From: a virus
Taxonomy: Duplodnaviria; Heunggongvirae; Uroviricota; Caudoviricetes
IMG/VR virus record: IMGVR_UViG_2541047931_000012
DNA: 45,439 nt
Direction: 5' to 3' (one strand)
This document shows, one piece after another, positions 34,007 through 37,944 of this stretch. Within the stretch, counting starts at the first letter, position 1. Every line of letters starts with the position of its first letter. Made by a program: the position numbers and the translations under genes. The notes under the pieces are model-generated. The model ran no database searches. It was not told the DNA's origin and saw nothing but the letters and a program-made list of their open reading frames with translations.

Positions 34007-34552
34007 TCATATCGCCCCCAGCATGGTAGTAACCATCGCCATCAATGGACCAGCCAGATCTGGGTCCACACGAAACATCGACACAATACCTTCACTAATT
34101 TCCTTCAGTTTCTGGTGGCGTGGTGCGTTGAGAATGACAGTCTGTTTTGCCTCACTGAGTTCCTTTTCCATTTCAGCCAACCTAGCCATGAAGCTATCCT
34201 GCTCAACCAGGTAACCGCGATATTCCAGCGGTAGTACCGCCAGAATTGCCGGGGTCAGTTCACGCACGTTATTTCGGTATTTTTCAGAATCGAATTTGTT
34301 ATCGAGGAAGCGGAACAGCTTCTGGCGTGCACGGCTGACATCATCAGGGAAATCGATGGTGCCGCCGCCCTGCTCCCGATACTCATTCACAATGAGTGCG
34401 GCAACAACATCCTGATTATCTGCAGCCGACCAGGCGCGAACGGCATCACGGATTTTTTCGTGGCCTGGCGCCTGTTTTGTTTGAGAACGATTTATCACCG
34501 CAGTCGGGCTAAATCCGCTAGTCTGTTGGTATGTAAGTGGTTGCATAGTCAT
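34007..34552 (-). CDS. YdaT-like protein, occupying the cII position
   Basis: 181-aa ORF with EYREQGGG and RELTPAILAVLPLEYRGYL resembling Rac YdaT from memory. Confidence 0.55.
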   Translation of the reverse strand: MTMQPLTYQQTSGFSPTAVINRSQTKQAPGHEKIRDAVRAWSAADNQDVVAALIVNEYREQGGGTIDFPDDVSRARQKLFRFLDNKFDSEKYRNNVRELTPAILAVLPLEYRGYLVEQDSFMARLAEMEKELSEAKQTVILNAPRHQKLKEISEGIVSMFRVDPDLAGPLMAMVTTMLGAI

Positions 34553-34576
34553 TGCCTTATCAGTTAACGCCGCAGT

Positions 34577-34810
34577 TTAGGCGGCAGAATTACTCGCGTT
34601 AAACAATGGTGCGAGGTCGGGACGAATATCTGCTGGTTTAATCTTTCCACCAGTGGCTGAGACAATTTTCATTACATAGCGGGCATCAATTCCGCCACCG
34701 TGTAGCCAACGCCAAACTGTGGGTTGGGCTACACCGCATAGATCTGCCAGTCGTTTTTGACTACCTGTAATACTGATTGCGAGTTGAATGGTTTGATTTG
34801 TCATTATCAA
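34577..34810 (-). CDS. Cro/YdaS-like HTH regulator, divergent from cI
   Basis: 77-aa ORF with HTH GSQKRLADLCGVAQPTVWRWL; first gene of the rightward operon. Confidence 0.65.
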   Translation of the reverse strand: MIMTNQTIQLAISITGSQKRLADLCGVAQPTVWRWLHGGGIDARYVMKIVSATGGKIKPADIRPDLAPLFNASNSAA

Positions 34811-34811
34811 T

Positions 34812-34878
34812 TCCTATTGGTATTGCAATGAATGAATAATAGCAATGCGTATTAATCCAAGCAATAGCAAAACGTGTT
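34812..34878. promoter_or_regulatory. OR-like operator cluster between the cro-like gene and cI
   Basis: Repeated AATAGCAAT / ATTGCAAT-type half-sites (tattggtattgcaatg, taatagcaatgcgtatta, caagcaatagcaa); related repeats recur at 37380-37465. Confidence 0.55.
34836..34864 (-). promoter_or_regulatory. PR-like promoter (TTGCTT - 17 nt - TATTAT) driving the cro-like gene
   Basis: Minus-strand hexamers with 17-nt spacing, about 30 nt upstream of the cro-like ATG. Confidence 0.45.
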
Positions 34879-34905
34879 TTGACCATCAATACGCAAGCGT
34901 ATAAA
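34879..34905 (+). promoter_or_regulatory. PRM-like promoter (TTGACC - 15 nt - TATAAA) giving a near-leaderless cI transcript
   Basis: The -10 ends 9 nt before the cI ATG at 34915 and there is no Shine-Dalgarno. Confidence 0.35.
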
Positions 34906-34914
34906 TTAAAACTT

Positions 34915-35607
34915 ATGAAAAAAGAAACTCTTGCTGATCGCTTAAACCTAGCGATGGAACAATCTGGAATGTCTCAAGGCGCTCTTGCAAAGGCGTCTGG
35001 CGTAGCTCAACCCACAATCTGGAGACTGACAAGCGGCAACGCTCGCGGCTCAACAAAAATTGTTGAAATAGCTAATGCATTGGGTGTTCGAACAGAATGG
35101 CTCTCATCAGGCATAGGCCCGATGAGAAATGACGGTCAACAATCAGGGAAGCCTGCTGTCAGCCATTCAAAATACTTCAAAATTGACGTTCTTGATATAG
35201 AAGTCAGTGCCGGGCCGGGAGTCATCAACCGTGAGTTTGTAGAAGTTCTACGCTCGGTTGAGTACTCGTTTGACGATGCTCGTCACATGTTCGATGGTAG
35301 GAAGGCAGAAAATATCCGCATCATTAACGTACGCGGTGACAGCATGTCAGGAACGATCGAACCAGGTGATCTTCTGTTCGTTGATATCACGGTTAAATCT
35401 TTCGACGGTGATGGTATCTATGCGTTTCTGTATGACGACACAGCCCATGTAAAGCGCCTGCAAATGATGAAGGATAAGCTGCTAGTTATCTCTGATAACA
35501 AGAGCTACTCACCGTGGGACCCGATCGAGAAAGACGAGATGAACCGGGTATTCATCTTCGGGAAAGTCATCGGAAGCATGCCGCAGACGTATAGGAAGCA
35601 TGGGTAG
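34915..35607 (+). CDS. cI: CI-like repressor (HTH plus S24 LexA-type autopeptidase domain)
   Basis: HTH MSQGALAKASGVAQPTIWRL and S24 motifs VRGDSMSGTI ... HVKRL; start taken at ATG 34915 (the listed ORF begins at TTG 34879). Confidence 0.8.
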   Translation: MKKETLADRLNLAMEQSGMSQGALAKASGVAQPTIWRLTSGNARGSTKIVEIANALGVRTEWLSSGIGPMRNDGQQSGKPAVSHSKYFKIDVLDIEVSAGPGVINREFVEVLRSVEYSFDDARHMFDGRKAENIRIINVRGDSMSGTIEPGDLLFVDITVKSFDGDGIYAFLYDDTAHVKRLQMMKDKLLVISDNKSYSPWDPIEKDEMNRVFIFGKVIGSMPQTYRKHG

Positions 35608-36137: not shown

Positions 36138-36161
36138 GTGATGATAAATGAGGATTTTTAT

Positions 36162-36749
36162 ATGAGAAACAACAACATATGTCCAGTTTGTGGTGTAGGT
36201 CATCTCACCGTGGAGATGGAGTATGATGATGTTACTTATAAAGGGGAAACAAAAAATCTCCCAATAAGGTTTTCTGTGTGTGATCAATGTGGTTCGGAAA
36301 CTGCCACACCAGTCGATTTACGAGAAAACAAACGAATTTTCAATGAATACAAAAAGTCTATCGATGGACTTTTAACAGGAAAAGAATTAAAAAAAATTAG
36401 AACTGAAGTATGGATGATAACCCAGCAAAAGGCATCCTCTATATTTGGTGGGGGGCCTAAGGCATTTTCCAAGTATGAATCTGATGATGTCATTCAATCA
36501 GAAGCAATGGATAAACTGATGCGTTTAGCAGCAGAAGTTCCTGATGCATTCAAAAGGTTACGGGAATTATCTGGCGAAATCAAAGTTGAAAGAACAGTCT
36601 CATCATCTAAATCTTTACCTATATGGAAATCTGAAGCAAAAGCACAATTTGAAAACGATGATCAGGGATTTGACAGCAAATCACCAGCCCAAACAAAAAT
36701 GAATCAAACATCAATAAAGATAAAAACTGTTGCTAAGCGGGTAGCATGA
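36162..36749 (+). CDS. MqsA-like antitoxin (zinc ribbon plus HTH) with a ~70-aa C-terminal extension
   Basis: CPVCGVGHL...CDQCGSE zinc ribbon and SIFGGGPKAFSKYE matching the MqsA EIFGGGVNAFSRYE motif; RBS gagga before ATG 36162. Confidence 0.7.
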   Translation: MRNNNICPVCGVGHLTVEMEYDDVTYKGETKNLPIRFSVCDQCGSETATPVDLRENKRIFNEYKKSIDGLLTGKELKKIRTEVWMITQQKASSIFGGGPKAFSKYESDDVIQSEAMDKLMRLAAEVPDAFKRLRELSGEIKVERTVSSSKSLPIWKSEAKAQFENDDQGFDSKSPAQTKMNQTSIKIKTVAKRVA

Positions 36750-37249
36750 TGAATGAACTTCTTAGATCAGCAATAGACGCATTATCAATAATGCATATCA
36801 ATATCAGAGAATCTAACTTTGCTTTTTCTGAAGGGTATAATAGCTTTAACTTCAACAGCATAAATAAGCAAACACAATCATTTCGTAAGATAAAAAAAAT
36901 CGAAGCTATTGAATTAGTAAGTGACGATGACTCATTAAAAAATGAGCTATATTACTCTTTTCACTACTCAGTTGGGCTTAGATTTATTGCAAAATCCGAA
37001 GAAACATCTAAAGACGAAAATGATGTTGATACAATTTTTTCTATAGAAGCAATTTTTGAGGCGATATATCGCTCAAAGAGAGAATTATCTAAAGAAGAGT
37101 TAGAAGAATTTGCTAAGCAAAATGTAGGTTTTAATGTATGGCCTTTTTGGCGAGAGTATGTTCAAAACAGCACATCCAGAATGGGAATTACTACAATAGC
37201 TATACCATTCTTTAAATTCAATAAATCAGACATACCTTCATTAGATTAA
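36746..37249 (+). CDS. SecB-like chaperone
   Basis: 167-aa ORF overlapping the antitoxin stop (ATGA); FSIEAI and VWPFWREYVQNSTSRMGITTIAIPFFKF parallel SecB FSIAGI and [28 protein letters not shown]. Confidence 0.6.
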   Translation: MMNELLRSAIDALSIMHINIRESNFAFSEGYNSFNFNSINKQTQSFRKIKKIEAIELVSDDDSLKNELYYSFHYSVGLRFIAKSEETSKDENDVDTIFSIEAIFEAIYRSKRELSKEELEEFAKQNVGFNVWPFWREYVQNSTSRMGITTIAIPFFKFNKSDIPSLD

Positions 37250-37379
37250 ATTCAAATATAACTCCCGGCTACCGTGCCGGGTTTTCTTTTGCCCTCCCCC
37301 CATCACACAAACCGTTCAAAAAACCACCACGACCTCACTTCAGTTATCGCTATGCGATGCAAGTCACAAAATTAATTCT

Positions 37380-37465
37380 TTTTGCTATCAAACATTTAAT
37401 ATCAAAACACATCAACTAATAGCAATAAGTATTGATATCACCAATAGCAATAGCTATTATCACCA
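37380..37465. promoter_or_regulatory. OL-like operator cluster with embedded PL-like promoter (TTGATA - 17 nt - TATTAT at 37432-37460, plus strand)
   Basis: Repeats ctaatagcaataagtattg and caatagcaatagctattat share the AATAGCAAT motif with the OR cluster; the promoter hexamers read rightward toward gam-bet-exo. Confidence 0.5.
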
Positions 37466-37653
37466 TATCGCAACAACACAACGATACGGCAACCACCTGA
37501 TTCACCGTTGCGATGACCGCTTAGATCCGCAGCTTGAATTTCAGCAGGCTTCGGGGAGTGCGAGGGATGAAACGGACGCGTGAACGTCGGTGTGACCAGC
37601 TGAAATCAACTCAACATTTCATACCTTAGTCGCTTCAACGAGGCGGCTTAGTT

Positions 37654-37944
37654 ATGACAACCGGCGGCCATCCACCGCCTGAATACGCGCAGAAGTCTTT
37701 ATATGTTCAGCAGCCCAGCTTACGGGCAGGAGTTTTTATGGTTCATCAACATTACGGAACGCAGACCGTTAATCGCGGTGCGGTCATGCCAGGAATGCTG
37801 GTCAAACGCAAAGATGGTACCTGGACTGCATCAGCTAATTTACGCGGACGACTTTATCTGCATCGCGGCATTGAGCGCACTTATACCCGTGACTTGCTCG
37901 TGGAAGTTTTTCTCGACGGACGCGGCAACGGTCTGAATCACTAA
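37654..37944 (+). CDS. Hypothetical protein at the head of the leftward early operon, in the place where N/cIII/kil would be
   Basis: 96-aa ORF; no arginine-rich N-like motif; lambda similarity resumes only ~80 nt upstream of gam. Confidence 0.3.
   Translation: MTTGGHPPPEYAQKSLYVQQPSLRAGVFMVHQHYGTQTVNRGAVMPGMLVKRKDGTWTASANLRGRLYLHRGIERTYTRDLLVEVFLDGRGNGLNH

Follow-up and report, generated by a model that had tools for sequence, protein, structure and literature searches.

Lambdoid phages that lack the antitermination protein N are known, the documented case being HK022 (PMC9378689). The put RNA is a two-stem element of ~75 nt whose structure has been described, with the core GAACGGC...GUCGG...GGCG.GG.UCA.GGAUGA...CAAU (PMC9378689). 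In CP-933P, YdaS and YdaT have been shown experimentally to be analogues of Cro and CII, and a toxin-antitoxin (TA) module lies beside the repressor (PMC8630535, PMC9986795). The kilR gene of the Rac prophage is reported to be silenced via NusG-dependent termination (PMC5793797). Here we describe a related early region in IMG/VR virus record IMGVR_UViG_2541047931_000012 (Caudoviricetes), a stretch of 45,439 nt whose whole length is referred to below as the window. A model given only the letters and their open reading frames (ORFs) had described positions 34,007 to 37,944 as a hybrid immunity region with no recognisable N (hereafter, the original prediction). We consider it likely that these positions govern immunity and early expression in a mosaic lambdoid prophage, in which early control proceeds without N and the promoter-proximal genes need no early antiterminator.

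The phage map in the window runs opposite to the usual drawing of lambda. On the + strand, cI (34915-35607) is followed by three ORFs of low guanine-plus-cytosine (GC) content (35727-37249), a terminator (37264-37281), an operator and promoter cluster (37373-37460), a leader, and then kil, gam, bet and exo. On the - strand, reading outward from the cI-proximal operators, lie a 77-aa helix-turn-helix (HTH) gene, a 181-aa gene, O and P. Protein families were assigned with Pfam, PHROGs and NCBIfam. The replication genes O (32991..34010, - strand; PF04492, 8.5e-34) and P (32293..32994, - strand; PF06992, 2.4e-62) are of lambda type. On the other side stand gam (38020-38316, + strand; PF06064, 3.4e-65), bet (38322-39107, + strand) and exo (39104-39784, + strand), the last two being ORFs annotated as Bet and exonuclease in phage PhiR70_1, which is 99.6% identical. 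The family matches and the PhiR70_1 annotation thus agree on a non-lambda regulatory core between lambda-type O/P and gam/bet/exo, and the hybrid character of the region was correctly seen in the original prediction. The core would be of the Rac/phi80/CP-933P style, with a LexA-like CI, YdaS acting as Cro and YdaT as CII, set between lambda-type O/P and kil-gam-bet-exo.

As in lambda itself, PRM and PR diverge across three tandem operators and PL has an operator set of its own; the locus also shares with lambda an S24 self-cleaving repressor with an apparently near-leaderless mRNA, an accessory cassette in the rexAB position, and O/P on one side with kil-gam-bet-exo on the other. It differs from lambda in having the unrelated YdaS and YdaT in the places of Cro and CII, another operator sequence, and a fourth site over the start of the cro-like gene. 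N, nutL, nutR and the tR1 gap are also lacking; since no N, cIII, ral or sieB ORF is found from PL to kil, kil adjoins PL. Prophages of the RacR/PaaR2-YdaS-YdaT type, Rac and CP-933P, likewise use YdaS and YdaT as analogues of Cro and CII, carry a kil-family gene leftward, and have no annotated N (PMC8630535, PMC5917428); CP-933P also has a TA module downstream of its repressor (paaA2-parE2). In contrast, the repressor in the window is a LexA-like S24 protein rather than RacR or PaaR2, lambda O/P stand in place of ydaUVW, and the Rac kilR leader, with its annotated KilS small RNA (sRNA), does not carry the leader block of the window when read by eye. HK022 and HK639 share an N-less lambdoid early region with the window. 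Indeed, HK639 and CobraSix have kil together with the same leader, composed of a hairpin and an upstream open reading frame (uORF), and CobraSix also has a YdaT-type ('CII-like') gene. Unlike those phages, the window has no put RNA and no terminator ahead of the kil leader.

The cI gene (34915..35607, + strand), whose ORF opens at a TTG at 34879, encodes a repressor with an HTH domain (HTH_3, 1.5e-06) and an S24 autopeptidase (Peptidase_S24, 1.5e-18), and it is annotated as cI in PhiR70_1 (99.6% identical). Its translation contains an SAG cleavage-type motif, GDSM and VKRL, so that the protein combines the N-terminal HTH, the C-terminal S24 peptidase, and the Ser/Lys dyad and Ala-Gly site motifs of a LexA-like repressor. 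Operator clusters were found on both sides of the gene, as the original prediction had stated. Divergent from the repressor is a YdaS-family HTH gene (34577..34810, - strand; likely start, ATG 34804), which matched PF15943 (1e-14; 54.5 bits against a cut-off of 30) and phrog_35, 'transcriptional repressor' (1.2e-24), and which represents the Cro analogue; a ydaS homologue of 228 nt is annotated in a matching genome (L006). Directly after this cro-like gene and ahead of the replication genes is a YdaT-family gene (34007..34552, - strand), matching PF06254 (5.2e-29; 101 bits against a cut-off of 21) and phrog_163, 'CII-like transcriptional activator' (2e-66). By analogy with YdaT of CP-933P (PMC9986795), its product may serve here as the CII analogue. 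These profile matches bear out the proposal that YdaS/YdaT-type genes replace cro and cII. With a gap of 24 nt from ydaS to ydaT and an overlap of 4 nt between ydaT and O, there is no space for a nutR/tR1 unit, as had also been proposed for the rightward operon. A search for the YdaT operator pattern TTGATTN6AATCAA returned a single inverted repeat with one mismatch (TTGATTTGTCATTATCAA, 34793-34810), a result equalled in 18 of 100 shuffles and hence not significant. This repeat covers the ydaS start; by the published CP-933P YdaT operator, a site would be expected near a PRE-like promoter at the ydaS/ydaT junction.

The operator is a 16-bp site, AATASSNNNNSSTATT, of the form AATASS-N4-SSTATT. 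At one mismatch or fewer it occurs six times in the 45 kb, always in OR or OL, a number not reached in any of 100 shuffles, and the exact 9-mer AATAGCAAT has three copies in the window, confined to the same two clusters. Therefore, the shared repeats of the OR-like and OL-like clusters noted earlier are real, though better described by the 16-bp form. By pattern search, OR holds four operators at a spacing of ~25 bp (34809-34824, 34838-34853, 34863-34878 and 34888-34903), and OL holds two (37418-37433 and 37443-37458) plus an inverted, weaker site (37373-37388) seen among the repeats. The promoters are putative. PR (34836..34864, - strand) was read from the sequence as TTGCTT, a 17-nt spacer and TATTAT, falls below the threshold of the promoter scan, and is overlapped by two operators, as in lambda. 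PRM (34879..34907, + strand; TTGACC-17-TAAATT) was found by the promoter scan and its position read from the sequence; since it ends 7 nt before the cI ATG, the cI mRNA would be leaderless or nearly so. PL (37432..37460, + strand; TTGATA-17-TATTAT) was the top match of the scan in the region (10/12) and is also overlapped by two operators. A bidirectional terminator (37264..37281; terminator scan) ends the unit formed by cI and the three low-GC genes. We propose that CI would bind the 16-bp sites at OR (3+1) and OL (2+1) and repress PR and PL while leaving PRM active, giving a near-leaderless cI mRNA that would also carry the accessory cassette described below. RecA-stimulated self-cleavage of CI would then derepress both early promoters.

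The leftward operon was said to begin with an unrecognised 96-aa ORF rather than an arginine-rich N. This ORF (37654-37944, + strand) is a uORF fused in frame to kil, a gene of the FtsZ/cell-division inhibitor family (kil proper, 37738..37944, + strand). The 96-aa form matched phrog_294, 'Kil protein for bacterial septation inhibition' (1.4e-37), with residues 20-96 carrying the match, and the 68-aa form that begins at ATG 37738 did so at 1.5e-36. The shorter form also matched NF008465, 'FtsZ inhibitor protein' (3.7e-16, below the cut-off of that subfamily), and Kil is 34% identical to KilR of Rac (E, 2e-11). The real kil start is probably ATG 37738, which has AGGAG 5 nt upstream and gives the 68-aa product; this form is annotated by RefSeq in phage 4A7 and by PGAP in Escherichia coli O157:H7 TW14359, and PhiR70_1 annotates the 96-aa form as Kil. 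The family matches thus identify the 96-aa ORF as the lambda-operon gene kil, neither N nor a replacement for N. The only family-assignable ORF between PL and gam being Kil, the operon indeed does not open with an arginine-rich N, and the description of the ORF as unrecognised no longer holds; nor did it turn out, as the original prediction had allowed, to be an N-family protein accompanied by nut sites.

To look for N by similarity, tblastn searches were run with lambda, P22 and phi21 N and HK022 Nun, and returned chance matches only. No boxA was found near PL or PR and no boxB-like hairpin in the PL leader, and a comparison of the PL leader with the 8.6-kb PR-direction transcript revealed nothing in common beyond chance 8-12-mers. 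For put, a covariance model that follows the pairing published for stems I and II (PMC9378689) was made from nine sequences taken from phage genomes (HK022 L and R, HK639, CobraSix, S9-5, phiEt88 L and R, UPF_BP1, and PdC23). Its best score in the window was 9.1 bits (E, 1.2), inside O, and scores were negative on the + strand of 37461-37760. As a positive control, 14 put elements outside the training set were recovered in related loci at 59-98 bits; none was found in the close relatives of the window, HK225 or Rac. The absence of a recognisable N, of nut sites and of a put-family RNA therefore stands. In a literature search, we found no explicit statement that this prophage type (working candidate, the Stx1 prophage VT1-Sakai/Sp15) lacks N.

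Terminator prediction was in keeping with early transcription that meets little obstruction. Apart from two weak ones, no intrinsic terminator was predicted on the + strand between 37281 and 40441, and none was predicted on the - strand from 34830 to 32000. A terminator-like hairpin between kil and gam (37969-37986; 5-bp stem, 8-nt loop) was set aside as weak, since this stretch is 95% identical in phages with Kil and Gam annotated there. PL transcripts would thus meet no predicted terminator ahead of kil, gam, bet and exo, and PR transcripts none ahead of ydaS, ydaT, O and P, so that no early antiterminator would be needed for these promoter-proximal genes. The original prediction had suggested N-independent early-gene control, with either a different antiterminator or none. 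The absence of N and nut agrees with this, and for the promoter-proximal genes N-independent expression without a dedicated antiterminator is the best reading; the premise of an unrecognised leftward ORF fell away.

Several points weigh against control of this kind. The first strong intrinsic terminator of the PL operon (40441..40459, + strand; 8-bp stem and T run), beyond exo and three small ORFs, stands before the ORFs in the xis and int positions, and on the way from P to Q (26255-26650) lies the isrK terminator (29398-29384). To complete its development the phage must therefore rely on read-through, on internal promoters or on a device not yet recognised. In addition, the first ORF with an AUG start on the PL transcript is preceded by 186 nt (37467-37653) of the kind that Rho typically enters, the terminator prediction covered intrinsic terminators, and Rac kilR offers a reported case of NusG-dependent silencing (PMC5793797). 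Finally, the promoter-proximal part of the leader (segment X, described below) occupies the position held by put in relatives. Past the 40441-40459 terminator are a traR-like gene and ORFs of 255 aa (40737-41504, ea22 position), 84 aa (43865-44119, xis position) and 428 aa (44153-45439, int position), all named from position and related-prophage annotations.

Ahead of kil lies a conserved, structured leader (37620..37737, + strand). It comprises a hairpin, P0/P1 (37620-37656), that buries GAGG and the AUG at 37654, a uORF beginning MTTGGHPPP at that AUG, a second hairpin P2 (37663-37679), a third, P3 (37713-37727), and the Shine-Dalgarno (SD) sequence of kil (37728-37732). In an alignment with HK225 the block upstream of kil is far more conserved than kil. 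Scanning viral contigs with a 21-mer from this block identified at least 120 loci, and among the matches listed there were 58 clusters at 93% identity, representing 57 contexts besides the window's own type; in our locus numbering, those beyond the window include L002 (5001-5140), L007 (from 3647), L008 (from 3371) and L013-L147. The common plan is usually a terminator hairpin with a T run, CAUACC, P1, the uORF with P2, a variable tail, P3, the SD sequence and the ATG of the next gene. P1 is a hairpin of 9-11 bp; in its lower stem CAUA is base-paired to UAUG at the start codon, and GAG(G) opens its 3' arm. P2 (GGCGG-CCAUCCA-CCGCC) lies inside the uORF that begins MTTGGHPPP, and P3 is a small hairpin just ahead of the SD sequence. 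The uORF is mostly 16-33 codons long. An in-frame insertion of 18 nt distinguishes its two commonest forms, which share their terminal TAA, and several contexts have the uORF joined in frame with the gene downstream. The window is of this fused type, which is why a 96-aa ORF appears there.

A second scan, anchored on P2 with P1 free to vary, found the leader in 14 species-representative genomes, mostly of Enterobacter but also of Citrobacter and Scandinavium, whose P1 sequences differ. When P0/P1/P2 was placed on 15 distinct sequences, 99% of positions were paired and seven pairs had changed on both sides (28 such cells), which none of 500 shuffles equalled; pairing dropped to 30-50% when the partners were slid. 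Since P2 was fixed by the search pattern it is uninformative for covariation. The P3 variants (GCCC/GGGC, GCC/GGC and GCCGA/UCGGC) are compatible with pairing by inspection, and the minimum free energy fold of the window sequence computed with RNAfold reproduces P1, P2 and P3. The PL leader as a whole folds no more stably than shuffles (z -0.75), and no Rfam family was found at the leader, either across the whole window at gathering scores or in 37300-38050 at E up to 10. In most contigs of sufficient length, the leader and cI share a strand, and homologues of YdaS, YdaT and O are encoded upstream on the opposite one. It precedes kil or a small gene before kil, and a kil homologue, where detected, begins 109-1076 nt downstream. 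A put RNA was detected in 14 related loci; wherever coordinates were compared, it is on the strand of the leader and precedes it either immediately or by up to a few hundred bases. In most relatives a terminator directly abuts the leader, and relatives of this kind often have put upstream; the window type has neither terminator nor put.

This arrangement suggests that the leader may gate the toxic division inhibitor Kil post-transcriptionally, the long hairpin hiding the start of the polyproline uORF and the small hairpin abutting the SD sequence of kil. The leader RNA is the sole element of the region for which we could not find a description. The KilS sRNA and kilR leader of Rac were considered as a model for it and set aside, showing no sequence resemblance on reading. 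In Rac (E. coli K-12; locus L133, 6406-6503), the annotated sRNA KilS lies ~175 nt upstream of kilR and is, by eye, unrelated to the kil leader of the window. Kil genes seem to attract differing 5' regulatory RNAs.

Between PL and the conserved leader lies segment X (37467..37619, + strand; 153 nt), for which no homologue was found beyond near-identical phages. It folds no better than shuffled sequence (z +0.33), and 29 variants carry only scattered single changes, none compensatory. A part of it (GGGGAGUGCGAGGGAUGAAACGGACGCGUGAACGUCGG) was likened by eye to put stem II, a resemblance ruled out by the negative covariance-model scores there. The first ~25 transcribed bases after PL (37461-37490, CCATATCGCAACAACACAACGATACGG) resemble by eye the PL starts of put-bearing phages such as S9-5 (CCATCGAAACAACACAGCGTTTCGG), the loci compared being L009 (~868-912), L007 (~2438-2462), L008 and L010. 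A promoter-proximal hairpin thus appears to be shared with put-bearing phages, put itself being replaced by segment X. At the end of the segment is an arginine-rich mini-ORF, MKRTRERRCDQLKSTQHFIP (37567-37629, + strand; frame 37534-37629, 20-31 aa), with GGAG 8 nt upstream. It is in frame with the uORF and kil, and the frame runs open to kil in the 4A7 and O157 relatives (125-136 codons).

Could some device of this leader replace N? A cis-acting RNA of the PL leader, either segment X or the hairpin-uORF leader, might be an analogue but not a homologue of put, modifying RNA polymerase or blocking Rho so that transcription passes the 40441 terminator to xis and int. Segment X does sit exactly at the putL position, the same leader is immediately preceded by put in four loci (L018, L021, L107 and L130), and the likeness by eye of the first transcribed bases extends to both S9-5 and HK639. 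The P1 hairpin is under clear structural selection, and a strong terminator does exist downstream. However, segment X folds no better than its shuffles and lacks compensatory changes, and nothing in the PR transcript corresponds to it; in most relatives the terminator comes before the conserved leader, not after it, and the leader starts a translated-looking uORF, which better fits translational control. We therefore hold such an RNA to be unlikely. The same doubt attaches to a broader proposal, that the hairpin-uORF leader (37620-37737), perhaps with segment X and the mini-ORF (37467-37629), is an undescribed cis-regulatory device of N-less YdaS/YdaT lambdoid phages that does part of the work of N and nut. 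Were this so, regulated ribosome loading on the polyproline uORF, or the RNA directly, would shield PL transcripts from Rho or from terminators further down and would control translation of Kil as well, but we judge it improbable. Lower still stands the notion that the mini-ORF, which in most relatives extends to a 125-136-aa ORF running into kil, encodes a minimal N-like antiterminator with an unrecognised RNA target. Its MKRTRERRCDQLK, right at the N-terminus, resembles the arginine-rich motifs of lambda and P22 N, and it is the first ORF after PL, with a well-spaced GGAG. A start codon is kept where ATG has become GTG (26 of 29 variants), and the TAG is CAG in 21 of the 29, leaving a 136-codon open frame in 4A7 and O157. 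Yet the mini-ORF matched no N family in Pfam or PHROGs, has no tblastn similarity to N, and is accompanied by no candidate nut site, boxA, boxB or second site in the PR operon. Its substitutions are four synonymous and eight non-synonymous, including R to W and R to C within the motif, and relatives with 75-82% identical Kil and the same leader do without it. An R/K-rich window of eight residues would, moreover, be expected by chance in ~10% of such leaders (a rough estimate). An N-like role is thus very improbable.

The simple lack of N might instead reflect decay, the region being what is left of a prophage after deletions removed N, nutL and cIII and broke its early control. A truncated ren with a low-GC NACHT gene inserted beside it would fit such a history, as would a gam open only in its short form, below upstream sequence that matches phages with Kil and Gam annotated there. 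These traits must be set against the intact regulatory ORFs, the well-formed operators and promoters, and the conservation of the arrangement in 2231 genomes. Furthermore, the PL-leader-kil-gam segment is 99.6-100% identical in PhiR70_1 (listed host, E. coli C) and is present in phages 4A7, Perceval, 1W and 3W too. Decay is thus highly unlikely, and N-independent expression of the promoter-proximal genes remains the reading that we prefer.

The kil-gam junction (37938-38020), 95% identical to phages PA28, 2B8 and ev207, in which Kil and Gam are annotated there, marks a mosaic boundary. For gam, only a short ORF of 98 aa is open. Upstream, what looks like the remains of a long Gam N-terminus can be read out of frame, which we take to correspond to that of lambda GamL.

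The three low-GC genes (35727-37249), like the ~270-nt PL leader, lie within the region covered by the original prediction but were not mentioned in it. They form an MqsRAC-type toxin-antitoxin-chaperone (TAC) system in the rexAB position, with a GC content of 32-38% against about 50%. The first gene (35727..36137, + strand) encodes an MqsR-like toxin of the RelE superfamily fold, recognisable by fold only and bearing an N-terminal extension. The second (36138..36749, + strand) encodes an MqsA-family antitoxin (TIGR03830, 6.9e-33, above cut-off; PF15731, 2e-17) with a C-terminal extension of ~60 aa that is a candidate chaperone-addiction tail, and the third (36746..37249, + strand) a SecB-like TAC chaperone. 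MqsRAC systems have the same gene order, in which the toxin is followed by a tailed antitoxin of the MqsA family and then by a SecB-like chaperone, and the triad is conserved in Erwinia. An E. coli MqsRAC system protects against T2 (PMC9519451), and the principle of chaperone addiction has been described (PMC5105189).

Other features lie along the PR path and in the late region. Directly after a truncated ren of 59 aa, and with an apparent promoter of its own (31792..31763), is a gene for a 650-aa P-loop protein (29833-32296; 30-35% GC), annotated as 'NACHT domain-containing' in the matching genome L006 and probably a defence moron in the PR operon. Between P and Q (28607-29450) are isrK, an RNA that binds Hfq (29450..29378) and is followed by a terminator of its own, the antisense RNA C4 (29353..29268), and a 204-aa ORF that we suspect, by position only, to be antirepressor-like; NCBIfam gave no match for it. 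This layout recalls P1 ImmI and Gifsy IsrK and places a terminator in the PR path toward Q. The late leader (25195-25784), downstream of Q and tR' (26186-26166), is Stx-phage-like, with three tRNAs, STnc100 and AsxR ('anti-stx2 sRNA'); in the stretch read, 24500-26650, no stx ORF was noticed.

The arrangement is not unusual but a widespread module, and YdaS and YdaT were already known as analogues of Cro and CII (PMC8630535, PMC9986795). Of 5426 complete E. coli genomes, 2231 contain the 280-nt PL leader, and for 2206 of these at least 80% of its length is covered by a single match. The same cI/YdaS/YdaT/O/P genes with PL-leader-kil-gam-bet-exo occur at 90-100% DNA identity in an O157:H7 TW14359 prophage and in the phages 4A7 (Bievrevirus), Lambda_4C10, Perceval and PhiR70_1, of which PhiR70_1, 4A7 and Perceval were deposited as complete genomes with named hosts. 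PhiR70_1 is 99.6% identical to the window over the whole region, the TAC genes included; 4A7, Lambda_4C10, Perceval, 1W and 3W share all but the cassette between cI and PL. This cassette varies: the window and PhiR70_1 have TAC, 4A7 and O157 encode an ASCH protein together with one of 353 aa, and different proteins are encoded elsewhere. The TW14359 prophage has IS1203 in P and the Exo/Bet/Gam set, from which, with published descriptions (PMC2669165), we infer that it is the Stx1 prophage Sp15/CP-933V.

These results do not overturn the current understanding of lambdoid regulation. What they provide is a re-annotation of Kil, whose 96-aa call fuses the uORF to the gene, a widespread, covariation-supported leader RNA absent from Rfam, and an MqsRAC-type defence cassette placed where lambda has rexAB. 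Since ~40% of complete E. coli genomes carry an early region of this type, an O157:H7 prophage among them, the way in which recombination, excision and the expression of Q are timed in the absence of N is relevant to the induction of prophages in pathogens.

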